DNA of 64,000 bases. It comes from Candidatus Omnitrophota bacterium (GTDB lineage: Bacteria; Omnitrophota; Gorgyraeia; 2-01-FULL-45-10). Below, in pieces: positions 22,771 through 37,776 of this stretch (within the stretch, counting starts at the first letter, position 1; every line of letters starts with the position of its first letter). The position numbers and the translations under genes were made by a program. The notes under the pieces were generated by a model. That model worked only from the letters and a program-made list of their open reading frames with translations. It ran no database searches and was not told where the DNA came from. Location: assembly GCA_903843285.1 (NCBI GenBank), contig CAIMPC010000068.1:1200-65199 (forward strand). The letters run 5' to 3'.

Positions 22771-23664
22771 ATGTATACTGCCTACTGGGGATTAACAGAG
22801 AAGCCTTTCGAAAATACGCCAGACCCTAAATTCATCTACTATTCTCAGAAGCATGAAGAGGCTATGGCGCGTATGCTTTATGTGGTGCGTGAACATAAGG
22901 GCGCGGCCCTACTGACCGGCGAATACGGTTGCGGTAAGACCCTTCTAAGCCGCGTCATAAGGAAAGAGCTCCAGCAGGAAAATAAGTACCAATCCGTCTT
23001 CATACTTGATCCCCACCTGACAGTCAGAGAATTCCTTCGGGAGATAATCTATCAGCTCGGAGTGGACAAAATACCTAAGAACAAACTAGATATATCCCAT
23101 GCATTGAATAAGACCATTCTCGCAAACCATAATTCCGGAAAACATACCGTGCTTGTGGTAGACGAAGCCCAGTCTATTCATAATATCGATATATTTGAAG
23201 AAATGAGACTGCTTTTAAATTATCAACTCGATGCGGCATTTCTGCTCACGATAATACTCTTAGGCGCGCCTGAGCTAAAACAGATGGTTACGGGGATGCA
23301 GCACTTAGTGCAAAGAATGGCCGCAGGTTATCATTTAAACGGATTGAGCGAAGCCGAGACTAAGAATTATATAAATCATCGTTTGCTTATAGCAGGCGCT
23401 AAGAGACAATTATTCACAGACGACTCATACCACGAGATATATCTGCATTCCTACGGGGTTCCCAGGCGTATCAACACTATTTGTGATCTTGCCCTTCTGG
23501 TGGGGTTTAGTAATAACCAAAATGTGATCGATAGAAAGGCCATAATAGATATCAATGAGGATATGGATCTGCCGAAACCCGACATGGAAAATCTATATCA
23601 GCCGTCATCTCTAACACCCCAAGGTGCGCCCGGTCGTTATGCCGGGCAGAAGGTCCACGCATGA
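22771..23664 (+). CDS. ExeA/GspA-like AAA ATPase (COG3267)
   Basis: The N-terminus YWGLTEKPFENTPDPKFIY matches the ExeA signature. Walker A is GEYGCGKT and Walker B is LVVDEAQ. Confidence 0.6.
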   Translation: MYTAYWGLTEKPFENTPDPKFIYYSQKHEEAMARMLYVVREHKGAALLTGEYGCGKTLLSRVIRKELQQENKYQSVFILDPHLTVREFLREIIYQLGVDKIPKNKLDISHALNKTILANHNSGKHTVLVVDEAQSIHNIDIFEEMRLLLNYQLDAAFLLTIILLGAPELKQMVTGMQHLVQRMAAGYHLNGLSEAETKNYINHRLLIAGAKRQLFTDDSYHEIYLHSYGVPRRINTICDLALLVGFSNNQNVIDRKAIIDINEDMDLPKPDMENLYQPSSLTPQGAPGRYAGQKVHA

Positions 23665-24773
23665 TAAAGCTGTCGAATTTATTTAAGAAACATGAGCAGT
23701 CTAAAGATGTGCCGCTTCCTAAGGGTATAAAAGAGGATACGAGGCCGCCCGAAGAGATATTAGCCGCGGAGGCCGTTATAAAAAGATCAACAGACATCCG
23801 CCATCATCAGTCGAGCATTAAGCTTTCACCGGCAATGAATGTGGAACTCGAGAAGGAACGGCCAACGACCCCCAACATAAAGAATCTTTATAATGATCTT
23901 CTGGAGAAGGCGAAGGAGATATATAAATCCGGCCCCGGCACTAAAAGGAATCTGGCCGCAGAAATTCATCCGCTCGTCGAAAAAATGCTCGAGTCCCTAT
24001 CCTCCGGAAGCGATGAATTGCTTCTTATAGTTCTCAGGAATTATCCTAAACCGGAAGATATGCTCTTCTATCACGTGGTCAATATCACTATAATGTCGGT
24101 TGTTGTGGGGCTGGGGCTCGGGTACGAACGCAATCGTTTGTTTGAGCTATGTATCGCGGCTTTCGTTCATGATATAGGGTCAAGAAATCAAGATATATTG
24201 AACAAACCGGATTCTTTCAGTGAAGAAGATTTCGACAAGATAAAGACTCATCCGAACGAGGGCGCACTCACGTTGAGTAAGATAGACCCAAGTCTTAACC
24301 AGAAGATACTCGACGCCGTAAAACAGGAGCATGAGAGGGCCGACGGCTCCGGATACCCGGAAGGGCTGGTATCAGATGAGATTAACGAATACGCCGAGGT
24401 CATAGGGCTCGCTGATGTATATGAGGCGCTTATGCACAACCGCCCATACAGGACCAAATATACATCCATAGACACTATCAGGATAATACTGAAGAATAAG
24501 AAGCTGTTTACCTCTAAGGTTATAAAGGCGTTAATAGAAGCGTTCGGAATATTTCCCATTGAGACGCTTGTGCAATTAAACACTAAAGAGATAGGCGTTG
24601 TTGTAAAGCGCGACCAGGAACTGATATCCAGACCTGTCGTTGACATAATAATCGACTCATACGGCAAAGAAGTGAAACAGCCGAAACGTATAAACCTGGC
24701 GAGCAATCCGGTAATATATATAGATAATTGTGTTAAGCAGGAAGATAAGTATATTAAGACCCCGATCAAATAA
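23661..24773 (+). CDS. HD-GYP domain protein (c-di-GMP phosphodiesterase family)
   Basis: Motifs HDIGS, HPNEGA and HERADGSGYPEGL (HD-GYP signature). Its start overlaps the ExeA-like stop (ATGA). Confidence 0.8.
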   Translation: MIKLSNLFKKHEQSKDVPLPKGIKEDTRPPEEILAAEAVIKRSTDIRHHQSSIKLSPAMNVELEKERPTTPNIKNLYNDLLEKAKEIYKSGPGTKRNLAAEIHPLVEKMLESLSSGSDELLLIVLRNYPKPEDMLFYHVVNITIMSVVVGLGLGYERNRLFELCIAAFVHDIGSRNQDILNKPDSFSEEDFDKIKTHPNEGALTLSKIDPSLNQKILDAVKQEHERADGSGYPEGLVSDEINEYAEVIGLADVYEALMHNRPYRTKYTSIDTIRIILKNKKLFTSKVIKALIEAFGIFPIETLVQLNTKEIGVVVKRDQELISRPVVDIIIDSYGKEVKQPKRINLASNPVIYIDNCVKQEDKYIKTPIK

Positions 24774-24798: not shown

Positions 24799-25245
24799 AT
24801 GAATAAAGTAAATACGATATTATTGGCTATTATCGCGGCGGTGTTCGCCGGGTATGCCCTGTATGTGAATATCCAGCTTAAGGATACGGTAAAACGCTAT
24901 GAGACCTCCGCTACCGACATGGCGGATAAGTTTGAGAAGATTAACGAAGATGTGCTAAGGGCCAGGGAAGAGCTTGCGAAGCAGAAAATATTGGTCGAAG
25001 AGGCTAAGTCTCAGGCGGAAATCGCTAAGGCCGAAGCGGCAAAGATAGTCGAAGAAGCTAAGCAAAAGGCCGAAGAGGCGGTGGTCGCGGCAAAAGAGGC
25101 CGAGCCGGTGAAATTGACTAAAAAGGAGCAGGAAGCCCTCGATGCGAAGGCTAAGGCGGAGGAAGCCAAGGCTAAAGCGGAGGCCCTTATGGGCACGGTC
25201 AATAACGAGCCGAATGCATGGGAAGCGCGCGAGGCACATTTATAG
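24799..25245 (+). CDS. Membrane-anchored coiled-coil protein, Ala/Glu/Lys-rich
   Basis: One N-terminal TM helix, then KAEAAKIVEEAKQKAEEA-type heptads. No enzymatic motif. Confidence 0.4.
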   Translation: MNKVNTILLAIIAAVFAGYALYVNIQLKDTVKRYETSATDMADKFEKINEDVLRAREELAKQKILVEEAKSQAEIAKAEAAKIVEEAKQKAEEAVVAAKEAEPVKLTKKEQEALDAKAKAEEAKAKAEALMGTVNNEPNAWEAREAHL

Positions 25246-25246
25246 T

Positions 25247-25325
25247 AGCGTGTCATTCTGAGGGAGGCCAACGGCCGATCGTCTCCGACCCTAACGGGTC
25301 GTAGACCCTTTAGGGAAGAATCTGT
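25247..25325. repeat. MITE/REP-like intergenic element, copy B
   Basis: It reads AGCGTGTCATTCTGAGGGAGG...CGGCCGA...GAAGAATCTG and contains the hairpin gtctccgaccc-taac-gggtcgtagac. It shares both cores with copy A on the opposite orientation. Confidence 0.5.
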
Positions 25326-25338
25326 TATAAGGAACAGT

Positions 25339-26250
25339 ATGAATAATAAATTAAAAATAGTAATGATATTTTCGCTAAGCGTCCTGATGCTCGGCGGGTG
25401 CAGATATAACAGCGCCGCTATGAAGGAAGGCGCCAAAAAACATTATGAAAAAGGCGTGAAATACTATGACGATGGCAAATTTAAACAGGCGGATAAGGAA
25501 TTCGATACCGCTAATAACCTGCTCGAAAGGGACAAGAAGATAAATGAGAAGCTTAATAAATCCGCTCCGGAGTCCAGGGGTGAGATAGCGTCCGAAAAGA
25601 CGAACCAGGAGACGTTGGCCAATAGGGGAAAGAGGACGCTGAAACCCCAGTATACTATAGGCGCCGAGGACGTCCTATCTGTGTTCATCTGGCAGAACCC
25701 GGATATGTCGCAGGATGTCACTGTAAGACCGGATGGTAGGATATCGTTTCCTCTTATCGAGGACATAGAGGTAGAAGGCCTGACGATCCCCCAGCTTGAT
25801 AAGGTGATAACAGAAAAGCTGCAAACATTTATAAAATATCCCGAAGTAACGATATCGATCAGGCGTCTGGGCGGTAAGAGAGTCATTGTCCTAGGAGAGG
25901 TTCAGTACCCCGGCGTATACCAGGTCACCGGCACGGAGAGCGTGCTCGAAGCTGTTGCTATGGCGCAGGGCTTCAAAGATAGTTCTCTGGCATCGAGCAT
26001 GATAGTCATAAAGGGCATGTTCTCAGGCAACCCGAGGATTATAAGGGCCAGCGCCAATATGGCATTAAGAGGAATTGGAAGCCAGAATATCAAGCTCGAC
26101 TCCGGAGATGTGGTATTCGTGCCGAAGAAACCTATATCCGATCTTAATTGGCTGGCCACGGAAATATCAGGCCCGATCCTGGCGATCACCGGTGACATTA
26201 CGGCTATTAAGACACTTACTCACGTGGCTTCTAAAACGCTGACAAAATAG
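25339..26250 (+). CDS. wza: Polysaccharide export outer-membrane protein, Wza family (Poly_export plus SLBB)
   Basis: Lipoprotein-type signal (LGGC). The Poly_export motif is VRPDGRISFPLIEDIEVEGLTIPQLDKVITEKL. SLBB-like VIVLGEVQYPGVYQ follows. Confidence 0.8.
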   Translation: MNNKLKIVMIFSLSVLMLGGCRYNSAAMKEGAKKHYEKGVKYYDDGKFKQADKEFDTANNLLERDKKINEKLNKSAPESRGEIASEKTNQETLANRGKRTLKPQYTIGAEDVLSVFIWQNPDMSQDVTVRPDGRISFPLIEDIEVEGLTIPQLDKVITEKLQTFIKYPEVTISIRRLGGKRVIVLGEVQYPGVYQVTGTESVLEAVAMAQGFKDSSLASSMIVIKGMFSGNPRIIRASANMALRGIGSQNIKLDSGDVVFVPKKPISDLNWLATEISGPILAITGDITAIKTLTHVASKTLTK

Positions 26251-26259
26251 GCACCGCCA

Positions 26260-26541
26260 ATGACTAAAGTCTATTCTAAAAGTCCCGACGTAGTATTTCG
26301 GAAGATCGCGGATGAATTTGTGCTGGTGCCGATCCGTAAGAACGCGGCCGATCTTGAGAGCATATATGCGCTGAACGAGGTGGGCGGACGCATATGGGAG
26401 CTGATAGACGGCCATCGTACAACCGTTGAGATACATAAAACAATCGCGGATGAATTTGATGTGACTCCGGACGAGGCCGAAGAGGATCTGCAGAATTTCG
26501 TTAAGAGCCTGGCAGAGACCGGCAGTATAAAAGAGAGTTGA
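26260..26541 (+). CDS. PqqD-family peptide chaperone (RiPP recognition element)
   Basis: A 93-aa protein. VFRKIADEFVLVP...LNEVGGRIWELIDGHRTTVEIHKTIADEFDV is the PqqD signature. It lies directly upstream of the rSAM gene with a 1-nt gap. Confidence 0.75.
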   Translation: MTKVYSKSPDVVFRKIADEFVLVPIRKNAADLESIYALNEVGGRIWELIDGHRTTVEIHKTIADEFDVTPDEAEEDLQNFVKSLAETGSIKES

Positions 26542-26542
26542 G

Positions 26543-27670
26543 ATGGAGCGCGTTCACTCCGTTCCGCAGGAAACCTACACCGCATTCAGTAATTCGATTC
26601 ACTCCAAAGTGTTAGAAAAGAACATCCCGATTGATGGGACGATAGAGCTGACCCAGCGCTGCAACTTAAAATGCGTGCAATGTTATTGCTGTCATGACCC
26701 GTCTAAGCGGGAGCTAAGCTATGACGAAATATGCCGTATACTGGACGAGATCGCCGAAGCAGGATGTCTTTGGCTACTGATAACCGGCGGGGAACCTCTA
26801 TTGAGACCCGACTTTTTAGATATCTATATGTATGCAAAAAAGAAGGGTTTTCTAATCACGCTATTTACCAATGCGACATTAGTCACTCCTGAGATATTGG
26901 ATCATCTGAGTAAATATCCGCCTTTTTCTATAGAAGTCAGCGTATACGGCGCGACCAAAGAAATATATGAAAAGATTACGGGGGTCACAGGATCATTTGA
27001 ATCCTGCATGGCCGGGATAAAGCTTATTCTCGACAGAAAACTACCGTTAAAATTAAAGACAATGGCCATGGCATTAAACCACCACGAGGTATCTCAGATG
27101 AAGGAATGGTCCGAAGGCATGGGCATCGAATTCAGGTTTGATGCGATGCTTCACCCGAAGTTAACCGGATTGAAGGATCCGTGGGATGTAAGGCTTTCGC
27201 CTGAGGATGCAGTGGCGCTCGATGGTTCAGACCAGAAGAAGCTCGATGCCTGGCGTGAGGTCTGTAAGCATCCATGGGAGCCATCGCAGAATGGGAGGCT
27301 ATTTACCTGCGGCGCCGGGAAGAATTCATTTCATATCGATCCGTACGGTTATCTCAGGCCCTGCGATATGATGCGAACGTTCAGCTACGATCTGCGTAAG
27401 CACTCATTCCGTGAAGCATGGGTTGAGATGTGCAGTGCGGTTTCGGTCGAGAAAGCCCCCGGTGATTATAAGTGCAGAGGCTGTAAGATGACTTTTATCT
27501 GCAACCAGTGTCCCGGATGGGGATTTCTGGAGAACGGAGATATCTATAGCATATCAGAAAATATGTGTGATGTGGCCCAATTAAGGGCGCGGAAGTTTGG
27601 GGCGGGAAGTGGTAACACAAAGGGAGGTATGTCAAATGAAGAAGAAATCTTATCAAAAGCCCAGCGTTAA
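26543..27670 (+). CDS. Radical SAM/SPASM-domain peptide-maturase-like enzyme
   Basis: The CxxxCxxC is CNLKCVQC in ELTQRCNLKCVQCYC at about aa 40. The SPASM cluster reads CGAGKNSFHIDPYGYLRPC...CRGCKMTFICNQCPGWG. There is no N-terminal RRE, consistent with the separate PqqD protein. Confidence 0.85.
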   Translation: MERVHSVPQETYTAFSNSIHSKVLEKNIPIDGTIELTQRCNLKCVQCYCCHDPSKRELSYDEICRILDEIAEAGCLWLLITGGEPLLRPDFLDIYMYAKKKGFLITLFTNATLVTPEILDHLSKYPPFSIEVSVYGATKEIYEKITGVTGSFESCMAGIKLILDRKLPLKLKTMAMALNHHEVSQMKEWSEGMGIEFRFDAMLHPKLTGLKDPWDVRLSPEDAVALDGSDQKKLDAWREVCKHPWEPSQNGRLFTCGAGKNSFHIDPYGYLRPCDMMRTFSYDLRKHSFREAWVEMCSAVSVEKAPGDYKCRGCKMTFICNQCPGWGFLENGDIYSISENMCDVAQLRARKFGAGSGNTKGGMSNEEEILSKAQR

Positions 27671-27794
27671 AAAGGTGCTCCTGACACCGGAGGACGCGGT
27701 ATTAGCTAATTGCAAAAGAGCTACGGGCAGTAACAAGAGTAGCGGCAGATGCAGAAGCCTTGGAACCTGCCCGAACAGGACGCGGGGCTCATAG
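27636..27794 (+). CDS. Candidate RiPP precursor peptide of 52 aa (MKKKSYQKPSVKKVLLTPEDAVLANCKRATGSNKSSGRCRSLGTCPNRTRGS)
   Basis: The RBS AGGGAGGT and the ATG lie inside the last 35 nt of the rSAM gene, indicating translational coupling. It has a Lys-rich leader and a core with 3 Cys, 7 Ser/Thr and a C-terminal Ser. The track shows the frame from 27597 only as an alternative-start ORF. Confidence 0.45.
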   Translation: MKKKSYQKPSVKKVLLTPEDAVLANCKRATGSNKSSGRCRSLGTCPNRTRGS

Positions 27795-27836
27795 TAATTA
27801 TTGTGATAGCATATAGTTTGAACGCGGGATATTTTC

Positions 27837-28721
27837 TTGCCCTTGAGTAATATTTGTGTTGGGGCAGATGTTCGGTTTAATATCGGCGGTGCCTCGATTC
27901 TGGTATCTGGGCCCAGCCATATGAAATTCAGGATTGACGAATCCTATAGCGGATTCACCGGTATATCGGAACCTGATATCGTTCTGTCCGTTCATGGTCC
28001 GGAAAAAAATATAGCCAAGTATATATCCGGTAGGTTGGTTTTCGATTCAGGTCTTACGTGGCGCCTGAACCGTGACAACGCCAGCCATATCTTCAGTTTC
28101 TACTCCCGGGATTTCGGAAAACTTCCTCATAAAGTAGCGGTGATAGATGAGGATTTCAAATCAGGCGATATCTTTCTCGGAGAAATAGCGGATAATATCT
28201 GTGAGCCTCTCGAATACCCCCTCGATGAAGTTTTAATGGTAAACCTTCTGGCCGCCGGCAGAGGTATCATGGCTCATGGATGTGGCATGAAGATGGGTGG
28301 AGATGGGCTCCTTTTTGTGGGTGTCTCTGGGAGCGGGAAGAGTACGATGGCGAAAATTGCCATGAAGGCTGCGCAAGCCAAAATCCTTAATGACGACAGA
28401 ACCGTTATACGAAAAATGGGCAGTGAATATTTTATTTACGGAACACCGTGGCATGGAGAGATCGATGAGTGTTGCCCGGACCATGCGCCGTTAAAAAAAC
28501 TCTTCTTTATAAAACATGCCAAAGACAATAAGATCCGGAAGCTTTCACCCGCAGATGCCGTCTCCCGCTTTATAAGCTGTTCCTTCCCGCCATTCTGGAG
28601 CGATAAGGGCATGGAATTTACGCTACAATTTTTGTCTGAACTTGTCAGCGACATTCCGGCCTATGAGCTCGGTTTCCTTCCCGACGAACGCGTCCTGGAA
28701 TTGATCGATAAAGATATATGA
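27837..28721 (+). CDS. HPr kinase/phosphorylase C-terminal-domain-like kinase (HprK-related)
   Basis: P-loop LLFVGVSGSGKSTMAKIA, followed by NDDRT...GTPWHGE, as in the HprK C-terminal domain. The start is uncertain: TTG at 27837 or ATG at about 27921. Confidence 0.55.
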   Translation: MPLSNICVGADVRFNIGGASILVSGPSHMKFRIDESYSGFTGISEPDIVLSVHGPEKNIAKYISGRLVFDSGLTWRLNRDNASHIFSFYSRDFGKLPHKVAVIDEDFKSGDIFLGEIADNICEPLEYPLDEVLMVNLLAAGRGIMAHGCGMKMGGDGLLFVGVSGSGKSTMAKIAMKAAQAKILNDDRTVIRKMGSEYFIYGTPWHGEIDECCPDHAPLKKLFFIKHAKDNKIRKLSPADAVSRFISCSFPPFWSDKGMEFTLQFLSELVSDIPAYELGFLPDERVLELIDKDI

Positions 28722-30250
28722 AGTCCGATAGCTCGACTATCTTAGAGCTCACGGAAGAGATCCTGCGCAAAGGGAGCTCTATCCGCTTTAAGGCCACGGG
28801 CGCAAGTATGTACCCCTTCATCAGGGACGGCGATATCGTATGTGCCGAACCCATCGAACTCCGGAATATCGAATACGCCGACATAGTCCTATTTCGCACA
28901 CCCGCCGGAAAGATGGTAATACACCGCGTTATTAAGCTAAAAAAAGTGAATAAAGCAATAATTTCTATAGTGACTAAGGGAGACTCTTCGCTTGCTCCGG
29001 ATGGGGAGGTGTATCCGGAAGCAATACTCGGAAGGGTTGTGTCAGTCGAGAATCGCACCGGGGTGCTACGATTAGATAAAAAGATTCCGCGCTTTGCCAA
29101 TCTTCTTTATGCATCTCTCCTACCGCTCAGTAAATGGCCGTATCTTTTAATATCTGTGATCCTTAGACGAATAGAAAAGAGAGACGGGATGGTCGTCATT
29201 GCGAGTCCGCCATTGTTTCAGCGGCGGACGAAGCAATCTAAAAATCGAAATTGCGTCATCGGACAATGTGAAGACGACAGCCTTCTCGCAATGACAGCGT
29301 CCAGTGGAGGCGAAGCGCTACAGGACAATCGTCACTACATAAGTTCTTATAAGAGCATCATGATGCTTGAGCAGGCAAAGAAGGTGATCTCCGGATTTGA
29401 CGGCCTTAATATTCCGACGATAATCCTCAAAGGGATTTTTTTTGCAGAGAAGATCTATGGAGACATTGCCGCAAGGCTGATGACGGATATAGATATTCTT
29501 ATAGATAAGAAAGACCTTGCCGGCGCAGATGCAATTTTATGCGCCTTAGGATATAGCCAGCCGCCACAGTATAAAGATTTTCTCAATAATTGCGCACCGT
29601 GTCCGGTTAACAGTATCATGTATTTTGCCAATGACAGAACGAAGCCGGCTGTTCACATACATTGGCATCTAATAAATTCTACGTGGCCGCTCGACGCTCT
29701 GGTCGAGAAATTTGATATGGGCAGGGTCTGGCAGTCTTCAGGCGACACAGAGATCAACGGTATCCCGACGCGCGCGCTTTCGCCCGAGCATCTCGTCATA
29801 TACTCCGCATATCACGGACTGCACCATTCATTCGATAAACCCGCGATGGTCTCCGATATTATAGAGTTAATAAAATTCTACGGTAACCGTATAGATTGGA
29901 ATATTGTCAGGGAAGAGTGCGACAGATCGGGCCTTAAATTTATTGTATATGCAGCCCTTAAGCATGCCATGACGGTTTCGGGATCTGATATTTCAGAGAT
30001 AGAGAAAGTAAGGCCAAAATATTTTGGGGCTATAGATAGAGCGGTACTGAAAAGTGTAAAAGACGGTAGAAGTAGCTATAAAATATCATATTTTGCGTTT
30101 TTATCTGCCCAAAAGGGCGCGTGGGGGAAGTTAGTCTTTTTATTCAGGACGATATTTCCGTCTCGGATCGTTATGTCGCATAATCTGCGTATTCCGGCAT
30201 CTCAAGTGAGAGTGCGTCATTATTTATCGCGTATGGCCTGCAGTCGTTAA
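28718..30250 (+). CDS. Fusion protein: N-terminal S24/S26-like (signal-peptidase-fold) peptidase plus C-terminal uncharacterised nucleotidyltransferase (PF14907-like)
   Basis: N-terminal TGASMYPFIRDGDIV (Ser-Met box), with Lys in HRVIKLKK. The C-terminal ~300 aa (GIFFAEKIYGDIAARLMTDIDILIDKKD...) resemble the nucleotidyltransferase family that co-occurs with HprK-like kinases. Its start overlaps the kinase stop. Confidence 0.45.
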   Translation: MKSDSSTILELTEEILRKGSSIRFKATGASMYPFIRDGDIVCAEPIELRNIEYADIVLFRTPAGKMVIHRVIKLKKVNKAIISIVTKGDSSLAPDGEVYPEAILGRVVSVENRTGVLRLDKKIPRFANLLYASLLPLSKWPYLLISVILRRIEKRDGMVVIASPPLFQRRTKQSKNRNCVIGQCEDDSLLAMTASSGGEALQDNRHYISSYKSIMMLEQAKKVISGFDGLNIPTIILKGIFFAEKIYGDIAARLMTDIDILIDKKDLAGADAILCALGYSQPPQYKDFLNNCAPCPVNSIMYFANDRTKPAVHIHWHLINSTWPLDALVEKFDMGRVWQSSGDTEINGIPTRALSPEHLVIYSAYHGLHHSFDKPAMVSDIIELIKFYGNRIDWNIVREECDRSGLKFIVYAALKHAMTVSGSDISEIEKVRPKYFGAIDRAVLKSVKDGRSSYKISYFAFLSAQKGAWGKLVFLFRTIFPSRIVMSHNLRIPASQVRVRHYLSRMACSR

Positions 30251-30253
30251 CCT

Positions 30254-30934
30254 TCAAGGCTTCTTATTCCTCCAAATCACCGTCCTGCCATTATTGAGCT
30301 CGGTTTCGAATTCAAGCCAGGGGGCCTCATCAAACAAATATCGATATTGAGGACAGTAGTAGACCGTGTGCGCTCTTCTTGGAGATTTTTCCAGGGAGAA
30401 TTTTATATTATCGAGAACCTTTGCCATGGTATTATGACCGAAGGGGTTATAAAAGAAGAATACGGTACCCAGGTCGATGTTATATGTGGCGGCGTCATGC
30501 GCCACGATCTCGACCGGACAATTAAGTGTCTTAGCGTTTTGCAGATTCTGTCCGGCGACAGCCAGTAATCTCTCGTCCAGCTCTACGCCTATCGCTTTCT
30601 TCAGGTTCTCCGATGCCGCCACAAATAAGGCGCGCCCTTTCCCACAGCCAAGATCTATAAAAACATCTTCCGGAGTCATCTTAAGATAGTCGATTATCCG
30701 TCTCATGTCGGCATACGGTGCGGGTACGTGAGATATCATATCTCTGTGGAGGCTGTTGTCACGCCATAATTGACATTCACCAGTCTCGATTCCGAGGCGC
30801 TTATCCTCATAATGATCTTTGTAGATAGTAGAGATGCGCAATATCTGCCAGTAAAATGCCATCCAGATTTGCAGAAATAGGTTTTTGAACTCCCGCAGAA
30901 GTTTATAGACGAGACTATTCTTTAAATCATCCAT
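30254..30934 (-). CDS. Class I SAM-dependent methyltransferase
   Basis: FIDLGCGKGRALFVAAS is the GxGxG SAM-binding motif. It converges on the + strand operon. Confidence 0.7.
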   Translation of the reverse strand: MDDLKNSLVYKLLREFKNLFLQIWMAFYWQILRISTIYKDHYEDKRLGIETGECQLWRDNSLHRDMISHVPAPYADMRRIIDYLKMTPEDVFIDLGCGKGRALFVAASENLKKAIGVELDERLLAVAGQNLQNAKTLNCPVEIVAHDAATYNIDLGTVFFFYNPFGHNTMAKVLDNIKFSLEKSPRRAHTVYYCPQYRYLFDEAPWLEFETELNNGRTVIWRNKKP

Positions 30935-30948
30935 TGTGCACCTTATCT

Positions 30949-31755
30949 TTAATATTGGGCCAGACTTCCTTCTCGCCGGGCTTTATTAATGCTGTACTTA
31001 AACAGGCAGAGGCTTATAGGAAGAAGCACTATGATGAATAGAAGTAGAAATCCTATCTCCTTATACAACTGCACAAGCGTGTATCCTTTATAAACCGAAA
31101 ACTCGATGGCTCTTATCGCGTAGGTGATGGGCAAAAACTGCGCGAGGAGTTGTAGCCAGGATGGAAGGACCGTTATGGGGAAGTAGACTCCGCTTATGAG
31201 GCCTTCGAGGCTCGAGACTATCCATCCGAATGGGTTACCTCGTTTAAAGATCATTATGAAGCACGCTGAAATTATTCCAAGGCATCCGAATGAGAGTATG
31301 GTCAGAATAAATACTACTATCGTCGACAGTATATTGGTATGAGCAAAATTGACTTTAAATAAGAATACGGCAAGTAATATGTATATGGCCATGTCGATCG
31401 TGGCCAGGACGAGGTTCCATAGTGTAAGCGATAAGAGTATCGTCGATATCTTGGTAGGAGTTACTAATACGGCCTCGAGAGTGCCCTGCATTTGTTCGCC
31501 CCGTATGCGATCGGAAAATGAGCCAAGCCCGACGCCGACGTAACCGAAGAACGCCATGCTCACCAAAACATAAGAGAAGTAATTGACTCCGAATTCCTCG
31601 AGATGCGGTGTTATGCGGCTCCCAAACAGCCTGTCGATGAAAAAATAACCAAGGATGCTAACGAATATTCCGAAGAAATTAAAGAGGAAGGCCATGCCGT
31701 AGCTCGACTCCATCAGGAAGTCTTTTTTTAAGAAAGCGATAGGTTTTCTTAGCAT
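30949..31755 (-). CDS. ABC transporter permease (ABC-2 type)
   Basis: About six TM helices, 268 aa. It sits immediately downstream of the ABC ATPase gene with stop and start overlapping. Confidence 0.7.
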   Translation of the reverse strand: MLRKPIAFLKKDFLMESSYGMAFLFNFFGIFVSILGYFFIDRLFGSRITPHLEEFGVNYFSYVLVSMAFFGYVGVGLGSFSDRIRGEQMQGTLEAVLVTPTKISTILLSLTLWNLVLATIDMAIYILLAVFLFKVNFAHTNILSTIVVFILTILSFGCLGIISACFIMIFKRGNPFGWIVSSLEGLISGVYFPITVLPSWLQLLAQFLPITYAIRAIEFSVYKGYTLVQLYKEIGFLLLFIIVLLPISLCLFKYSINKARREGSLAQY

Positions 31756-32549
31756 TATTTCGCCCCTCCGGTAAGGCGGACGAATATTTCGCCAAGTGAG
31801 GCCGTAGGTAAATTAGTTTCCGCCCGTAATTCTTCCAGCGTTCCGTAAGCGAAAAGCTTGCCTTCATGCAGTATCATAAATATGCCGCCGAAGTCGATAG
31901 CCTCGTCCATGTGATGTGTTGTGAATATAACGGTCTTTCCGTGCTTCTTTACGAGAACGTCCTTAATGAAGTTTCTTAGCTCGAGTGATGAGGCGTAGTC
32001 GAGACTCTTTGTCGGCTCGTCGAGTAACAGGATCTCGGGGTCATGGATGAGCGCGCGCATCAGCGCGAACTTTTGCTGCATGCCGGTCGAGTATGAGTCG
32101 AAGCGTTTATCCTGGTAGGTGACGCCGAATAGCTCGAGCAGCTCTTTTATGCGTTCGGCGGCCTGTTTCTTACCGAGTGAGTACATCGCGGCGAAGAAGT
32201 CGAGGTTCTGCCGCCCGCTCAGGCGCCAGTAGAAACTTCGCTCGCCCGATGTCGCGAGGCCGACGGATGCCTTTATCCGCTCATCATTCTCCCCGAGAAT
32301 CTGGCCGTTGACCTTCACAGATCCCTTGTCGGGGAGGATCAGCGTCGAGATGATCTTTAACAGGGTAGTCTTGCCGGCACCGTTTGGTCCGAGTATGCCG
32401 AGCGTAGAACCTTTGGTGAGCGTAAGCGAGAGTCCGTCGAGTGCGCGTGTGGCGCTCGGCCGTCTGAGCCCGGAGCTGAGCAGTCCCGACAGCGAGAATG
32501 CGGGGGAGAAGTCCTTAGTGACGCCATTAACTTCAAGTATCGTCTCCAT
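31755..32549 (-). CDS. ABC transporter ATP-binding protein
   Basis: Walker A is GILGPNGAGKTT, the signature is YSTGMQQK, Walker B is ILLLDEPT and the H-loop is TTHHMDE. Confidence 0.85.
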   Translation of the reverse strand: METILEVNGVTKDFSPAFSLSGLLSSGLRRPSATRALDGLSLTLTKGSTLGILGPNGAGKTTLLKIISTLILPDKGSVKVNGQILGENDERIKASVGLATSGERSFYWRLSGRQNLDFFAAMYSLGKKQAAERIKELLELFGVTYQDKRFDSYSTGMQQKFALMRALIHDPEILLLDEPTKSLDYASSLELRNFIKDVLVKKHGKTVIFTTHHMDEAIDFGGIFMILHEGKLFAYGTLEELRAETNLPTASLGEIFVRLTGGAK

Positions 32550-32786
32550 GTGCTTTCGAGTCTAACAAATAATCCGCGTTCAGTCAACCGCGAACAAGAG
32601 AAAGTATCCTTCATGGCTCCTACCGCTCTCCCGCGGCGTTTACTTTTGTAACTGCCTTCCGCCGCTTGAATCCCTGCGCTTCCCTACCTTACAAATTAAT
32701 CAATTGAACAAAGACAATTCTCTTAACGCCCTTGATAATTCTATAATTGTATGATATCTTCTACATAATAGTATCTATGGAGTAAG

Positions 32787-34715
32787 ATGCCAAAATACGA
32801 ATTGAATGTCCGTGACTACCTGCGTATCCTTCGTAAGCGAAGGCTGGTAGTCATTGTCACGTTTATAGCAGTTCTCATAGGTACGGTTATCTATATATCC
32901 ACTCAGCCCGTCATCTACGACGCCAGCACCACAATCAAAATAGAAGAACGGAAGACCGTATCGGGTTTACTCACCGAGTGGGTACTTTATAGCCCTGCCG
33001 ACGTTATGGAGTCCGAGACGAAGCTCATAAAAGGTTACGAGATCATGAAGCAGACAGCGATCCGTCTGGGAATGATCAACGAACAATCGGATCTTGACAA
33101 TATCAACCGGGCCGTAGGAGAACTGCAGGGTGCTGTAACTACCGAGAGGGTTGGCGGTACCAATATGATCCGTATTATGGTGACTGCCGATACGGCGAAG
33201 AAGGCAATGGAGATTGCTAACGGCGTAACCGAGACCTATATGGTGGAGAACCTGAAAGATAAGGCCAAGCAGGTGAAGCATGCGAGGCTCTTTATAGAGG
33301 AACAATTGACCTCCCTCGAGAACAGGATGAAGACAGCGGAAGATAAAATACGGCTAATAGGCGAAAATTTCGGAGATGTCAGGTTGGCTGAGCCGATAGA
33401 GAAGAAGCTGAACGAACTGCAATTCGATCTGGCGGAGGCAAGCCAGAAATACACCGAGAAACACCCCAGGGTAATACAACTCAGAGAGCAGATAGTCGAT
33501 ATAGAGGCACAGATAAAGGGATTCTCGGGTAAGGAGATCGAATATGCGAGGCTTATCCGCGAGACTGATGTAAATAAAAAATTATATGCGATGCTAAGAG
33601 AAAAGCTCGAAGAGGCCAGAATAACGGAGGCCCAGAAAGTCAGCGATATATCTGTGGTCGATCCGGCCGTTATGCCACTGGCACCTATCTCTACAAATAA
33701 ACATCTGGCTTTGATAGTGGGTATGGTGATGGGAACTGTCTTAGGTGCTTCCTTAGCATTCGTGGTCGAGACCCTGGATACGTCTATAAGCACGATCGAG
33801 GACGTTGAAAGCATGGTCAAGCTGAGAGTGCTCGGCGTAGTCCCGCCGCTTGGCAGGGAGGCCAAATTGAAGCGCGGCTTTTTCAGAGACCTTAAGGAGA
33901 GGATATTTCCTACGGACAATATCCATAGGGATACAGAGGAACCCATATATCTTATAGCGCACTTCGAGCCGAATTCTACTGCCGCGGAAGCATTCCGCAA
34001 TATCCAGACGAATCTAAAGCTCGACCCTACTCAGAAGACGATATTAATAACCAGTTCGGGCCCGAGGGAAGGAAAGTCGAGCATCTCATCGAATCTCGCG
34101 GTGGTTATGGCGCAATCAGGTCTTAGAACGCTTTTAGTATCGGCTGATCTCAGGAGACCAGCACTCGACAAAGTCTTCGGCATAAAACGCGAGCCCGGCA
34201 TGAACGAATATATTACCGGCTCGGCCAGCCTGAAAGAGGTGTTGAATGGTATAGTGGATATAATGGTCGGCGAGATGGACTTTGACGATATTCGTAAGAC
34301 CCCCGGCTTGGATAATATATCGATCATACCTTCCGGCAGACTTTCGTATAATCCGGCTGAGATATTGAAATCGAAGGAAGTTAAGAACCTGATTGAGAAG
34401 GTGAAGAACAGATACGACCTGATAATATTTGACGCACCCCCGGTACTGCCCGTAACCGATGCGAGCCTTCTGGCTCCCACGATGGACTGCGTGGTGCTGA
34501 TATATGAGATCGGACGGACCAGCCGCGAAGCGTTGATACGTACGAAGATACAGCTGGAATCCGTAGGCGCGAAGATAACGGGAGTCGTCCTGAACCACAC
34601 CCAACCCGAAACGGAAGCTGTGATGTCATATCCCTACTACAAATACAGGTACGGATATGCGTCGAAGGAGAGCCCTTTTAATAGAGCGGAAAACAAGACC
34701 AAAACGAGAGTTTAG
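32787..34715 (+). CDS. wzc: Polysaccharide co-polymerase / tyrosine autokinase, Wzc (BY-kinase) family
   Basis: N-terminal Wzz/GumC domain with two TM helices. Walker A is SSGPREGKSS, Walker A' is LLVSADLRRP and Walker B is DLIIFDAPP. The C-terminal Tyr cluster is YPYYKYRYGY. Confidence 0.85.
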   Translation: MPKYELNVRDYLRILRKRRLVVIVTFIAVLIGTVIYISTQPVIYDASTTIKIEERKTVSGLLTEWVLYSPADVMESETKLIKGYEIMKQTAIRLGMINEQSDLDNINRAVGELQGAVTTERVGGTNMIRIMVTADTAKKAMEIANGVTETYMVENLKDKAKQVKHARLFIEEQLTSLENRMKTAEDKIRLIGENFGDVRLAEPIEKKLNELQFDLAEASQKYTEKHPRVIQLREQIVDIEAQIKGFSGKEIEYARLIRETDVNKKLYAMLREKLEEARITEAQKVSDISVVDPAVMPLAPISTNKHLALIVGMVMGTVLGASLAFVVETLDTSISTIEDVESMVKLRVLGVVPPLGREAKLKRGFFRDLKERIFPTDNIHRDTEEPIYLIAHFEPNSTAAEAFRNIQTNLKLDPTQKTILITSSGPREGKSSISSNLAVVMAQSGLRTLLVSADLRRPALDKVFGIKREPGMNEYITGSASLKEVLNGIVDIMVGEMDFDDIRKTPGLDNISIIPSGRLSYNPAEILKSKEVKNLIEKVKNRYDLIIFDAPPVLPVTDASLLAPTMDCVVLIYEIGRTSREALIRTKIQLESVGAKITGVVLNHTQPETEAVMSYPYYKYRYGYASKESPFNRAENKTKTRV

Positions 34716-34819: not shown

Positions 34820-36190
34820 ATGCTGAATAACAGTAAGGGCCAGGTAGCGTTTACGATCGTAGGTATACTTCTCTTCGTCGCCACGATGCTTCTCCTCACT
34901 ATGATGGGCATCCCGCTCAATATCTCCACGGCGATCCTTATCGGCGGCCTGATATTCGTCATATCGTTCGTAAATACGGATCTCGCTCTCATAATCCTCA
35001 TATTCACGATGCTTCTCTCTCCGGAATTCACCGCGGGCGAGGCTGCGGGTAGATCGATTAAGATCCGTGCTGATGACATATTCATAATAATCATATTTTT
35101 AGGTTGGCTGGCCAAAATGGCTATCAATAAAGAATTAGGTCTTTTAAGAGCCACGAGACTTAATTCTGCGATCATGTCATATATAGTCATATGCGTACTC
35201 GTTAGCGCTATTGCCGTAATAGAAGGCAGGGTAAAACTGCGTTCATCGATCTTTTACCTTCTGAAATATATAGAGTACTTTATCATCTTCTTCATGGTAA
35301 CGAATAATTTAAAGACCGTGGTCCAGGCCAAAAAATATATATTTTACCTTCTATTGACATGCTTTATCGTCAATATTTACGCCCTGGTCAGTGGTTCAAT
35401 AAGCGGAAGAGTCAGCGCGCCGTTTGAGTCGGGAGCGGGAGGCGAGCCGAATACATATGCGGGATATCTTATCATCATGATGTCGCTTACGCTTGGGCTT
35501 ATATTTAATGCATCGCCAGGTAGAAAACGGTTGGCCCTGGTATGTCTTCTAGGTATGTCGGCGGTTGCGCTTCTCCAAACATTATCGCGGAGTGGGTGGT
35601 TGGGTTTCTTTGTCGCGTTGGCGGCATTTATTTACTTCAACAAGAAGCACAGAATCATCATGATAGCGGTGCTGCTGGCTTCAATTGTTATTATTCCACT
35701 CATCGCGCCTAAAGCTGTATACCAACGGGTAAGTGATACGTTCGTGACTTGGAAGACTTATAAGGTCATGGGATCAAGGATAGGTCTGGATGAATCGGCA
35801 TCGACACGAATAGAGTCATGGAAGGTAGGATTTAAGCGCTGGGCGAAACGACCGATATTAGGCTTCGGCATACCGGCCGGAGTCACGATAGATAACCAGT
35901 ATACGCGCGTCTTGAATGAGACGGGATTAGTAGGCTTTACGGCCTTCTGCCTTATCTTATTTGCCATATTCAGATCGGCGTATTCTGTCTATACGTCTAT
36001 GTACGACAATGATTTCGCGCAGGCGATTAGCATAGGGTTTCTGTCGGGCTTTATGGGGTTATTGCTATTCTCGGCCGCCGCCGCAACCTTCATCATCATC
36101 CGCATCATGGAACCTTTTTGGTTCATAGTCGCCATTATAGCGGTGTTGCCGGAGCTGGAGACCGAGGGTGTGGGGGCCGACGTTATATGA
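34820..36190 (+). CDS. O-antigen ligase / Wzy-like polymerase family membrane protein
   Basis: At least 10 TM helices. The Wzy_C-like segment is LLQTLSRSGWLGFFVALAAFIYF. Confidence 0.6.
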   Translation: MLNNSKGQVAFTIVGILLFVATMLLLTMMGIPLNISTAILIGGLIFVISFVNTDLALIILIFTMLLSPEFTAGEAAGRSIKIRADDIFIIIIFLGWLAKMAINKELGLLRATRLNSAIMSYIVICVLVSAIAVIEGRVKLRSSIFYLLKYIEYFIIFFMVTNNLKTVVQAKKYIFYLLLTCFIVNIYALVSGSISGRVSAPFESGAGGEPNTYAGYLIIMMSLTLGLIFNASPGRKRLALVCLLGMSAVALLQTLSRSGWLGFFVALAAFIYFNKKHRIIMIAVLLASIVIIPLIAPKAVYQRVSDTFVTWKTYKVMGSRIGLDESASTRIESWKVGFKRWAKRPILGFGIPAGVTIDNQYTRVLNETGLVGFTAFCLILFAIFRSAYSVYTSMYDNDFAQAISIGFLSGFMGLLLFSAAAATFIIIRIMEPFWFIVAIIAVLPELETEGVGADVI

Positions 36191-37776
36191 AGACCAGCCA
36201 CGCAGCGCAGGGCAGTATCTCCGGTAAGATTATGAAGAACACAGCTTATAACATATTGGGAAAGCTGTGGTGGATCCTGATAGCGATTTTTCTGACCCCG
36301 TATATAGTCTCGAAGATCGGCATAGAGCGATTCGGTGTCTGGGCGATAGTGGGCGTTATCACGGGTTATTTTGGGCTTCTCGATTTTGGAATAGGGATGT
36401 CATTTATTAAATATATAGCCGAGTTTCACACGAAGGGCGAGTATGATAAGATAAACCGACTTATCGACACGGGCTTCACTCTATACGCGATATTTGCCTT
36501 TATGTGCTTTTCTCTGGTATTCATTCTCAGAGGTCCGATCCTTAAATTATTGAATGTTCCAGTTTACCTTCATCACGAAGCCGGCATAGTTTTGCTGATA
36601 GGAATCGCTCTCTTTGGCGCAGCTAATGCGATGAGTCCTTTCCTGGCTATCCAGGGAGGATTACAGCGCATGGACATATCCAATAAGATCGGGATCGGGC
36701 TGTCCGTGATAAATATCGCCGGAACGGTATATTTTTTGGAGTGCGGTTACGGGATCATAGGCCTGATGGTGAACAATGTTATAGTATTCACCGTGATGGC
36801 CGTTATCAACGTGATCGCCGCCCATAAGCTCATTCCGGCTATACGCTTCAGAGCCTTCCATCTCGACAAGTTAATATTTAGGAAGTTGTTCAGCTTCGGA
36901 TATAATATGCAGATCTCCAAGATCTCCGGCCTAATATCGGCCCAGACCGATAAGATCCTGATATCCTGTTTCCTATCCATCGGACTGGTAACATTTTATC
37001 AACTGGGCAGTTCCATCGTTTATAACGCATGCTCGTTCGCCTATGTGCTATCCTCGGCGCTGATGCCGGCATTCTCCGAAATAGATGCTCTCGGCGATAG
37101 GGCCAGGCTTGTCGAGGCGTATTTGAGGAGTGTAAAGTACCTGAGCTTTTTCACTGTCCCGGTATTCATATTCATGGCCATCTCGGCAGGAGAGATAATG
37201 TTCATATGGATGGGGTTCGGGTACGGCCAATCAGTACTTGTCATACAGGTACTGGCGTTTGCACTCCTAGTATACACGCTCGCGCAATCCTCATCATCGG
37301 TGTCGGCGGCCATCGGTAAGCCGCAGCTTCTGGCGATGGGCTCACTTATCATAATATTCCTGAACGTGATATTGAGCGCGGTATTCATAAAGGCCTTCGG
37401 CTTCCTGGGAGCGGCCTGGGGAACGCTGATAGCTGTGAATGTGGGTACGGTATATTTTCTGAACCAGTTGCATAAAGATATAAGAGTCAGCACCCGGTCT
37501 TATATAGGCACGACTGTGCCTTTCTTCCTGGCGTGCGCCGCGGCGACGGCCGTAATATTTGTCGTATGGAATATTCTCGGACGCTTTGTTAATTTCTCCG
37601 GTATTGGGAGGTTATGGTCCATGGCGTTCTTCCTTGCCAGAGGGACAATATTCCTACTTACTTATTTCTTATGCGTGAAGGCGCTCTCGCCGTTCCGGGC
37701 GAAAGAGCTCGAGGTGATAAGAGAGAAGATACCGGTTCTCGGGTCGGTAATGGTTAAGATGATAAGCCGTCAATAA
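36187..37776 (+). CDS. wzx: Polysaccharide biosynthesis protein / flippase (Wzx, MOP superfamily)
   Basis: About 14 TM helices, 529 aa. The ATG at 36187 overlaps the upstream stop (ATGA). The track ORF from 36118 is a frame extension. Confidence 0.65.
   Translation: MKTSHAAQGSISGKIMKNTAYNILGKLWWILIAIFLTPYIVSKIGIERFGVWAIVGVITGYFGLLDFGIGMSFIKYIAEFHTKGEYDKINRLIDTGFTLYAIFAFMCFSLVFILRGPILKLLNVPVYLHHEAGIVLLIGIALFGAANAMSPFLAIQGGLQRMDISNKIGIGLSVINIAGTVYFLECGYGIIGLMVNNVIVFTVMAVINVIAAHKLIPAIRFRAFHLDKLIFRKLFSFGYNMQISKISGLISAQTDKILISCFLSIGLVTFYQLGSSIVYNACSFAYVLSSALMPAFSEIDALGDRARLVEAYLRSVKYLSFFTVPVFIFMAISAGEIMFIWMGFGYGQSVLVIQVLAFALLVYTLAQSSSSVSAAIGKPQLLAMGSLIIIFLNVILSAVFIKAFGFLGAAWGTLIAVNVGTVYFLNQLHKDIRVSTRSYIGTTVPFFLACAAATAVIFVVWNILGRFVNFSGIGRLWSMAFFLARGTIFLLTYFLCVKALSPFRAKELEVIREKIPVLGSVMVKMISRQ

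Follow-up and report, generated by a model that had tools for sequence, protein, structure and literature searches.

In lasso peptide clusters of Firmicutes, the linear precursor has a C-terminal Ser that is phosphorylated by a homologue of HPr kinase. Some lasso clusters encode the B2 leader protease as a fusion with a putative nucleotidyltransferase (PMC8498205). For pseudomycoidin, the addition of one or two hexoses to the phosphate of the C-terminal Ser requires PsmN. This uncharacterised NTP transferase has been modelled on ANT(2''), and its DxD motif is essential (PMC6993621). Here, we describe a locus with similar parts in a 64,000 nt stretch of DNA from a Candidatus Omnitrophota bacterium (contig CAIMPC010000068.1, positions 1,200 to 65,199). 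We refer to the whole stretch as the window. The locus encodes a kinase-like protein followed by a fusion of an S26-type peptidase to a PF14907 nucleotidyltransferase domain. We favour the view that it specifies a new radical S-adenosylmethionine (SAM) variant of the peptides that are synthesised ribosomally and modified post-translationally (RiPPs). This variant would reuse a lasso-type tailoring module together with a cytoplasmic S26B leader peptidase. We infer all of the chemistry, and put the probability of this reading at roughly 0.55.

The operon and its Ser-terminal precursor peptide

The kinase and fusion genes are predicted to be the last two of a five-gene RiPP-type operon with the order PqqD, radical SAM/SPASM enzyme, precursor, kinase and fusion (Table 1). 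The genes are co-directional, with junctions from 1 nt to overlapping; the kinase and fusion open reading frames (ORFs) overlap by 4 nt (ATGA). Both ORFs had been reported in an earlier note on this DNA, which placed them in a kinase-associated RiPP setting. They are present as described, and domain searches and gene neighbourhoods bear out the setting. Every motif quoted in the note is found: FVGVSGSGKSTMAK at kinase residues 160–173, and GASMYPFIRDGDIV and HRVIKLKK at residues 28–41 and 69–76 of the fusion. The best NCBIfam matches of the PqqD protein are ScmD and the lasso PqqD, both below cutoff, and its gene lies directly upstream of the radical SAM gene in L001–L010 and other loci (loci are numbered with the prefix L). 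The radical SAM enzyme carries a CxxxCxxC motif (CNLKCVQC). Its NCBIfam matches to MftC, AlbA, StsB, PapB and WgkB are all below cutoff.

The precursor gene is included in public gene calls. A strong ribosome-binding site, AAGGGAGG, is located 7 nt upstream of the ATG and the peptide ends ...TRGS. Homologous peptides are encoded at the same position in 8 genome loci, and nine genome-derived precursors share the leader Y-x-K-P-x-[IV]-x-x-[IV]-x-L-x-P-E-E-A-V-L-x-x-C-K. We scanned metagenomes with a degenerate DNA pattern that covered the leader only and left the C-terminus unconstrained. This recovered at least 120 loci, mostly on contigs of 1–3 kb. The counts in this paragraph are among the matches listed. 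A homologous peptide is found at the same position in 119 metagenome loci. The C-terminal residue is Ser in 116 of 119 complete peptides and Thr in 3, and 78 of 118 unique peptides end in Gly-Ser. Exactly three Cys residues occur in 96 peptides. The Cys residues are separated by 13–16 and then 5–8 residues, and in 94 of the 117 peptides scored the last one lies at a distance of five residues from the C-terminus. Because the pattern left the C-terminus free, and Ser accounts for only 15% of core residues, the excess of C-terminal Ser is not due to chance, the sequences being related and so not fully independent.

All-against-all clustering of small ORFs in L005–L048 added two precursors, in the more distant cassettes L027 and L046. 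These also end in Ser or Thr, as do the precursors of L013 and L014. For Syntrophales-type loci, the same clustering (L005–L048) found no conserved precursor; the remaining clusters consisted of PqqD-family proteins or of ORFs that overlap longer genes.

Several variants of the precursor were observed. The Elusimicrobia and Clostridia variants (L013, 2281–2481; L014, 2250–2459) have three radical SAM/SPASM genes and separate genes for peptidase and nucleotidyltransferase. Their precursors are longer, with four Cys residues and the same leader, and end SST and AIS respectively. In L086, L092 and L149 the precursor gene of this family is present as a diverged tandem pair, and all complete copies end in Ser or Thr. 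A further subfamily has the leader '...K[IV].LDAK[CT]AVL..CK' (L052, L056, L097, L124, L168 and similar). The apparent gene order in L052-type loci, seen on partial contigs, is radical SAM, S26 peptidase, PqqD, precursor, kinase, nucleotidyltransferase. Peptidase and nucleotidyltransferase would here be unfused, at opposite ends.

We scanned 185,579 species-representative genomes with an alignment of the fusion, which yielded 48 loci; the window proteins were then compared by tblastn. The block of PqqD, radical SAM, peptide, kinase and fusion, with or without ABC-2 genes, is conserved in Omnitrophota and in a Planctomycetia metagenome-assembled genome (MAG). The order PqqD, radical SAM, peptide, kinase, peptidase, in some cases followed by the nucleotidyltransferase, recurs in Omnitrophota, Planctomycetia, Latescibacterota, a delta-proteobacterial MAG and elsewhere. 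The same parts in varied order are found in Elusimicrobia, NC10, Latescibacterota, Verrucomicrobiota, Lentisphaerae, Clostridia, Aminicenantes and Syntrophales. Among the matches listed for the 120 leader-pattern loci, the peptide co-occurs with a kinase in 87, a radical SAM enzyme in 70, PqqD in 58, an S26 peptidase in 41 and a nucleotidyltransferase in 11.

The window nucleotidyltransferase domain also finds a lasso locus, L173, in Paenibacillus cellulosilyticus (NZ_CP054613.1, 1031027–1045560). Here, the precursor ends ...TVTIS and the gene set comprises PF14907 (208 bits), an Asn-synthase-type cyclase, an HprK-like kinase, PqqD, a transglutaminase-type B2 protein and an ABC transporter. 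The two nucleotidyltransferase domains are 24% identical (E 6e-18). By sequence, L173 and the window have three things in common: a Ser-terminal precursor, an HprK-superfamily kinase and a PF14907 protein.

L173 itself is an unannotated cluster of the paeninodin/pseudomycoidin type. Just upstream are genes for an NTP_transferase/mannose-6-P isomerase and a UDP-glucose/GDP-mannose dehydrogenase. These GDP-mannose-type sugar-nucleotide genes could supply a hexose donor.

The kinase and the peptidase–nucleotidyltransferase fusion

The kinase is predicted to be a ScmC-type P-loop kinase of the HprK/PEPCK superfamily. An AlphaFold2 model has a predicted local distance difference test (pLDDT) score of 92.7. 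In Foldseek searches the whole kinase superposes best on ATP-dependent phosphoenolpyruvate (PEP) carboxykinases (query-normalised template modelling score, TMq, up to 0.49). Matches to HprK/P (1kkl, 1knx) cover mainly the C-terminal half, with E values of 1e-5 to 1e-4. Matches to PF07475 HprK_C (17.1 bits), PEPCK_ATP (16.3) and TIGR04355 HprK_rel_B (23) are centred on the P-loop and are all below threshold. The precomputed Pfam assignment is PF27840 'ScmC', flagged as weak. The P-loop GVSGSGKS (about 28320–28343) is invariant; invariant residues among 32 homologues include G162, S164, G167, K168, D186 and R188. The P-loop is thus like that of the HprK C-terminal domain, as the earlier note had said. 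That note had further described the kinase as lacking a regulatory N-terminal domain. This stands insofar as there is no HprK-type domain; residues 1–125 nonetheless form a confidently modelled, PEPCK-like and beta-rich domain (pLDDT >90). By profile, membership of HprK/P was not supported (PF07475 17.1 bits against a cutoff of 33.3; TIGR00679 18.5 against 240). HprK/P proper was rejected on these scores and on the N-terminal domain.

The peptidase and nucleotidyltransferase-like domains are joined in a single ORF, as profile hidden Markov models (HMMs), AlphaFold2 and Foldseek agree. Profile boundaries are residues 28–109 for TIGR02228 and PF00717, and residues 210–417 for PF14907. The AlphaFold2 model, built from a 14-sequence alignment, has a mean pLDDT of 79.6. 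An identical fusion protein is encoded on 17 public metagenome contigs, and 13 homologues with 31–48% identity have the full two-domain layout. These observations rule out an assembly or frameshift artefact, and they argue from sequence that the fusion is real and under selection. Between the domains is a conserved amphipathic helix, whose P136/W140 motif is also conserved among stand-alone peptidases, and a linker. The linker (residues 146–207) has pLDDT <50 and is gapped, variable and of variable length in the alignment.

The N-terminal domain is predicted to be a peptidase of the endoplasmic reticulum (ER)/archaeal S26B (SEC11/SipW) Ser-His-Asp type. It scores 57.2 bits with TIGR02228, 'signal peptidase I, archaeal type' (cutoff 51.85), and 24.3 bits with PF00717, Peptidase_S24 (cutoff 23.3). 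The model is beta-rich over residues ~5–135 (pLDDT 70–90). Foldseek searches of the PDB matched SEC11A/C (7p2p_A, 7p2q_A; S24/S26 beta-barrel fold) with a target-normalised score (TMt) of 0.55–0.57 and 23% identity. Further matches were the lambda cI C-domain (TMt 0.62–0.63), SpsB and Streptococcus pyogenes SipA. In phmmer alignments to SEC11A/C, Ser30, His69 and Asp95 align with SEC11A Ser56, His96 and Asp122, and Asp89 aligns with Asp116. Across 14 homologues, residues S30, H69, R70, G88 and D89 vary little or not at all. The earlier note had proposed a Ser/Lys peptidase. The SEC11A alignment and the 14 homologues instead indicate a catalytic set of Ser30, His69 and Asp95, with Lys73 of HRVIK not conserved. 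The S26A/S24 Ser/Lys type was rejected, since His69 occupies the general-base position, Lys73 varies and TIGR02227 gives 19 bits, below its cutoff of 47. A stand-alone relative of the domain matches the nickel superoxide dismutase (NiSOD) maturation protease family TIGR02754 at 33.2 bits (cutoff 63.25).

Hydropathy was measured using Kyte–Doolittle windows of 19 residues and a threshold of 1.6. No N-terminal transmembrane anchor was found before Ser30; the best window in residues 1–60 is 0.80. The highest in the whole fusion is 1.31 (residues 130–148). For comparison, the SEC11A anchor reaches 1.68 and the neighbouring ABC permease 2.99. Because no hydrophobic anchor lies N-terminal to Ser30, we infer a cytoplasmic location for the peptidase domain or, at most, a peripheral association with the membrane. 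A housekeeping membrane signal peptidase was ruled out by the missing anchor.

The C-terminal domain scores 120.2 bits with PF14907 NTP_transf_5, against a gathering cutoff of 31.2. Literature found describes PF14907 as uncharacterised. The model of residues 208–510 is alpha/beta-plus-helical (pLDDT >90), and Foldseek matches it to ANT(2'')-Ia, LnuA and TM1012 (TMt 0.62–0.68). Invariant residues in the 14-sequence alignment include K238, G239, D257-x-D259 and H313-x-H315-W316. The nucleotidyltransferase fold expected from the earlier note is therefore present in the prediction. The modelled domain has a Pol-beta-type fold and a metal site of the form G-[GS]...D-x-D. Transfer to a peptide phosphoserine is proposed only by analogy with PsmN.

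The same note had stated that the two activities are normally encoded separately, which holds in related cassettes. Peptidase and nucleotidyltransferase are separate genes in nine loci (L007, L014, L018, L019, L035, L036, L045, L119, L139) and fused in the window, L001–L004, L011, L027 and L032. In L008–L010, L017 and L021 the fusion contains a GNAT domain between the two. S26 and GNAT alone are joined in L037, L064, L134 and L155, judged by sequence, and in P0021–27, judged by precomputed Pfam. In one protein, P0077, an S24/S26 domain is fused to a ScmC kinase. A word-indexed protein search with the peptidase domain alone gave 7 matches. We used instead an exhaustive profile search, which gave 248 cluster representatives at E<=1e-30. 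Sizes were taken from the best 150 of the 248: ~109 are stand-alone (at most ~215 amino acids), ~22 have 289–371 amino acids (S26+GNAT), ~16 have 470–604 (S26+PF14907) and 3 have 655–730. Hence, the peptidase appears to be a core cassette enzyme repeatedly fused to tailoring enzymes, with S26+PF14907 a minority architecture. Such repeated fusion and fission suggests that peptidase and tailoring enzymes act in one pathway.

Proposed pathway and alternatives

Gene fusion and fission, and the conserved gene order, make it plausible that proteolysis and nucleotidylation or phospho-transfer target one shared substrate, as the earlier note had suggested. In the pathway we propose, PqqD would bind the conserved leader. 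The radical SAM/SPASM enzyme would then cross-link the three regularly spaced Cys residues, as a sactipeptide or ranthipeptide maturase would. Next, the kinase would phosphorylate the C-terminal Ser, in the manner of the HPr-kinase homologues of paeninodin and pseudomycoidin. The PF14907 domain would add a hexose or a nucleotide-derived group to the Ser phosphate (compare PsmN). The soluble S26B domain would cut off the leader in the cytoplasm, and the ABC-2 pump would export the product. The flexible linker, of ~60 residues, would tether the leader peptidase to a late tailoring enzyme so that both act on one bound peptide. It would let the two domains work at opposite ends of one ~50-residue substrate. 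The same logic would apply to the sister fusions: the GNAT domain could acetylate the newly exposed N-terminus, and the kinase fusion could be understood likewise.

Several observations weigh against this pathway. A −3/−1 rule would fit a cut after the first Cys (Cys26), where position −3 holds a small residue in ~80% of peptides and −2 is unrestricted, and such a cut would discard a conserved Cys. Phe precedes the first Cys in 22 of 118 peptides, a poor fit to the −1 pocket of a signal peptidase. A 19-residue window of at least 1.6 occurs in 4 of 29 stand-alone relatives of the peptidase, three times in a hydrophobic C-terminal helix; membrane association may therefore occur, and the topology is tentative. 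The nucleotidyltransferase is found in 11 of the 120 peptide-anchored loci among the matches listed, a minority of cassettes. The kinases of the window and L173 share only the P-loop segment (35% over 54 residues, E 4e-5), so that the same substrate site is assumed. According to its authors, PsmN may only make the donor for host glycosyltransferases (PMC6993621). Beyond the lasso peptide work, no paper describing the cassette was found in the open-access literature searched.

Alternatively, the operon could serve to make a cofactor-like compound or small molecule, much as the pathways of mycofactocin or pyrroloquinoline quinone (PQQ) do. Mycofactocin is cut from the C-terminus of its precursor and then glycosylated. 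By this account, the C-terminal Gly-Ser would be the site altered by the radical SAM enzyme; the kinase and nucleotidyltransferase would turn it into a phospho- or nucleotide-linked small molecule, and the S26 peptidase would release a C-terminal fragment instead of removing an N-terminal leader. In its favour, what the family strictly conserves is its C-terminus. The operon includes a PqqD partner, and the only near-full-length NCBIfam alignment of the radical SAM enzyme is with the mycofactocin maturase MftC (95 bits, residues 28–321). The scores for MftC, PqqE and similar families are, however, far below their cutoffs. Three Cys residues with conserved spacing over 20–30 residues suggest instead a folded or cross-linked peptide product. 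There is a dedicated ABC-2 exporter alongside, and no cofactor-dependent oxidoreductases were noted in the operon. We consider a cofactor-like product unlikely.

A second possibility concerns the PF14907 domain alone. It might modify an exopolysaccharide or lipid-linked intermediate, or confer self-resistance as ANT and Lnu enzymes do, with the fusion reflecting only co-regulation or co-localisation. The closest solved folds are indeed antibiotic nucleotidyltransferases. Cassettes with the nucleotidyltransferase are often in Wza/Wzc loci beside an ABC-2 transporter, and the enzyme is dispensable in most cassettes. Yet at least 13 homologues, and ~19 of 150 family representatives, have the domain covalently joined to a core cassette enzyme. 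Where the genes are separate they are often adjacent, with the peptidase followed by the nucleotidyltransferase (L007, L119, L139). In Paenibacillus, PF14907 occurs in a lasso cluster that lies outside any Wza/Wzc locus, and PsmN acts on a peptide phosphoserine or is required for its modification (PMC6993621). A non-peptide role is thus improbable.

A further suggestion is that the S26-like domain is a self-cleaving or regulatory module in the style of LexA/cI, or a non-catalytic peptide-binding module like SipA, and cuts its own linker to release or activate the nucleotidyltransferase. The fold matches to the lambda cI C-domain and SipA, the PF00717 score just above cutoff and the ~60-residue disordered linker after the domain would all fit. 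Against this, the catalytic residues are of the SEC11 type (His, not Lys) and are conserved, unlike those of SipA. Most family members are stand-alone proteins of ~135–215 residues with nothing to release, and the core cassette has no other protease for leader removal. Such a role is very unlikely. Finally, that the fusion joins an unrelated enzyme to an ordinary membrane type I signal peptidase, which processes secreted proteins of the polysaccharide locus, would agree with the TIGR02228 score above cutoff, and is barely credible given the lack of an N-terminal transmembrane anchor and the strict linkage of the domain to the peptide cassette in many phyla.

Surrounding genes and relation to known systems

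Table 1. Features of the window, with coordinates given as window positions.
Feature	Coordinates	Strand	Size or residues	Basis or remarks
XrtA/PEP-CTERM-like ATPase	22771-23664			TIGR03015 221 bits, below cutoff
HD-GYP protein	23661-24773
Wza-like polysaccharide export protein (context)	25339-26250	+		PF02563 85.5 bits; TIGR03027 below cutoff
PqqD-family protein, probable leader-peptide recognition element	26260-26541	+	93 amino acids	PF05402 64.6 bits, cutoff 23.4
Radical SAM/SPASM peptide-maturase-like enzyme	26543-27670	+	375 amino acids	PF04055 82.7 bits; weak SPASM match
Precursor peptide, MKKKSYQKPSVKKVLLTPEDAVLANCKRATGSNKSSGRCRSLGTCPNRTRGS	27639-27794	+	51 amino acids	Three Cys, C-terminal Ser; ribosome-binding site, homologues at same position
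ScmC-type kinase ORF	27837-28721	+	294 amino acids	TTG start
Peptidase–PF14907 fusion ORF	28718-30250	+	510 amino acids
S26B peptidase domain	28718-29122	+	Residues 1-135	TIGR02228, SEC11A/C alignment, Foldseek
Peptidase codon Ser30	28805-28807	+
Peptidase codon His69	28922-28924	+
Peptidase codon Asp95	29000-29002	+
Conserved amphipathic helix (LPxSKWxY) and disordered linker	29123-29338	+	Residues ~131-148 and 146-207	pLDDT, alignment
PF14907 nucleotidyltransferase-fold domain	29339-30250	+	Residues 208-510	PF14907 score, Foldseek, invariant residues
SAM-dependent methyltransferase	30254-30934	-	226 amino acids	Convergent with operon; multiple methyltransferase Pfam matches
ABC-2 permease	30949-31755	-		PF01061
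ABC ATPase	31755-32549	-		PF00005
Wzc-like chain-length determinant/tyrosine autokinase (context)	32787-34715	+		Wzz, GNVR, AAA_31; TIGR01007 162.9, cutoff 108
O-antigen-ligase-like protein	34820-36190
MOP flippase	36118-37776

The operon is set between the Wza-like and Wzc-like genes, inside a large exopolysaccharide locus of the Wzx/Wzy type. Directly after the fusion gene is a methyltransferase gene whose product has weak similarity to DOT1/protein-lysine methyltransferases. A 44%-identical homologue is found at the same position in L002, and the protein may be an accessory tailoring enzyme. The ABC-2 permease and ATPase are a probable exporter. This pair adjoins the cassette in 15 related loci (44–74% identity for the permease and 38–72% for the ATPase). 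The locus already has a flippase, a polymerase-like protein, Wzc and Wza; hence, the ABC-2 pump is a better candidate for export of the peptide than of the polymer.

The export gene adjoins the cassette in other phyla as well, and Wzc-like homologues with 45–65% identity lie near it in L005, L007, L012, L013, L016 and L035. Wza- and Wzc-like genes together with ABC-2 genes lie beside the cassette or on both sides of it in L005, L007, L012, L013, L016, L020, L024, L026, L035, L119 and the window (25339–34715). Across such loci the ABC-2 permease is 42–74% identical, compared with roughly 25–56% for most cassette enzymes. A Wzc match occurs in only 3 of the ~14 contigs of at least 8 kb in the peptide-anchored set, among the matches listed. 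The Wza/Wzc link may therefore be specific to the subgroup bearing the nucleotidyltransferase. The recurrence of export gene, cassette, ABC-2 and Wzc in several phyla also raises the idea of a peptide–polysaccharide conjugate. A peptide with a C-terminal phosphoserine glycosylated by PF14907 might serve as primer, anchor or cap for the exopolysaccharide, or be a matrix or signal peptide co-exported with the polymer. We regard this as speculative and unlikely.

The exopolysaccharide locus spans window positions 22771–52502 and contains numerous genes for glycosyl- and methyltransferases. The ORFs scanned in this locus included no exosortase. Another radical SAM protein, SPASM/twitch-like at its C-terminus, is encoded about 21 kb downstream at 51351–52502. 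Its best match, a tungsten-cofactor radical SAM maturase, is far below cutoff, and it has no obvious partner peptide. A 737-residue protein (45760–47973) is a tandem double heptosyltransferase with two full domains, and a 719-residue protein (42854–45013) joins a GT4 glycosyltransferase to a SAM methyltransferase. The GT2 glycosyltransferase at 41389–42168 has the SunS peptide S-glycosyltransferases as its best NCBIfam match (46 bits, cutoff 350). This probably reflects generic GT2 similarity; it is of note since the neighbouring precursor is Cys-rich. A scan of 25000–33000 for promoters and terminators gave counts that did not differ from those of shuffled sequence.

If our proposal is correct, the cassette defines a large uncharacterised RiPP family, with at least 120 metagenome loci and a hallmark of three Cys residues and an invariant C-terminal Ser/Thr. 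Its members come from Omnitrophota, Planctomycetota, Elusimicrobiota, Latescibacterota, a delta-proteobacterial lineage and Clostridia. The tailoring module made up of C-terminal-Ser kinase and PF14907, hitherto reported from lasso peptides alone, would be portable between RiPP classes, and this would help to settle what PF14907 enzymes do. A soluble Ser-His-Asp peptidase of the SEC11/SipW type would join the known leader peptidases. Promiscuous fusion of this peptidase to nucleotidyltransferase, GNAT and kinase provides a usable handle for genome mining. Placement in an exopolysaccharide locus would hint at a link between modified peptides and matrix production in uncultivated phyla.

The cassette resembles several known systems in part. 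The SynChlorMet (SCM) family, TIGR04248–04251, is, so far as is known, defined only bioinformatically, and it is not known to include the S26 peptidase, PF14907 or the present precursor family. It shares a ScmC-type kinase-like protein, a PqqD-family protein and radical SAM/SPASM enzyme(s), and kinases of related loci weakly match TIGR04249. Membership as an SCM equivalog was rejected: scores are 43.2 against a cutoff of 100 for ScmD, 70.3 against 400 for ScmE and 62.9 against 400 for ScmF, and there is no ScmC match for the window kinase. With S26B signal peptidases (SEC11A/C, SipW and the archaeal enzymes), the peptidase domain shares its fold and the Ser, His and Asp of the SM-P, HRV and GD...D motifs. 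Unlike them, it has no N-terminal signal anchor, is encoded in a peptide-maturation operon and is fused to cytoplasmic enzymes. SodX, the NiSOD maturation protease, is likewise a small soluble S26 enzyme without a membrane anchor, and removes an N-terminal propeptide from a cytoplasmic substrate. The match to its family, TIGR02754, is below cutoff, and substrate and genomic context differ.

Sactipeptide and ranthipeptide systems (AlbA, StsB, PapB) have, like the window, a radical SAM/SPASM enzyme, a PqqD element and a Cys-containing precursor. All radical SAM scores are nevertheless well below the respective cutoffs, and we know of no kinase, nucleotidyltransferase or S26 peptidase in those systems. 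Phospho(glyco)sylated lasso clusters, as for paeninodin (PadeK) and pseudomycoidin (PsmK/PsmN), share the Ser-ending precursor, kinase, PF14907-type nucleotidyltransferase, PqqD, leader peptidase and ABC exporter. Neither an Asn-synthase-like lasso cyclase nor a B2 transglutaminase protease was found in the cassette or its neighbours, whereas both are present in L173; their absence excludes a lasso peptide cluster. In place of cyclase and B2 Cys protease the cassette has the radical SAM/SPASM enzyme and the S26B peptidase, and the core is a three-Cys peptide, unlike those of lasso peptides. In our proposal, the window system would work like a lasso phospho(glyco)sylation module grafted onto a radical SAM pathway of the sactipeptide/ranthipeptide kind; the parts are known and the combination is new.

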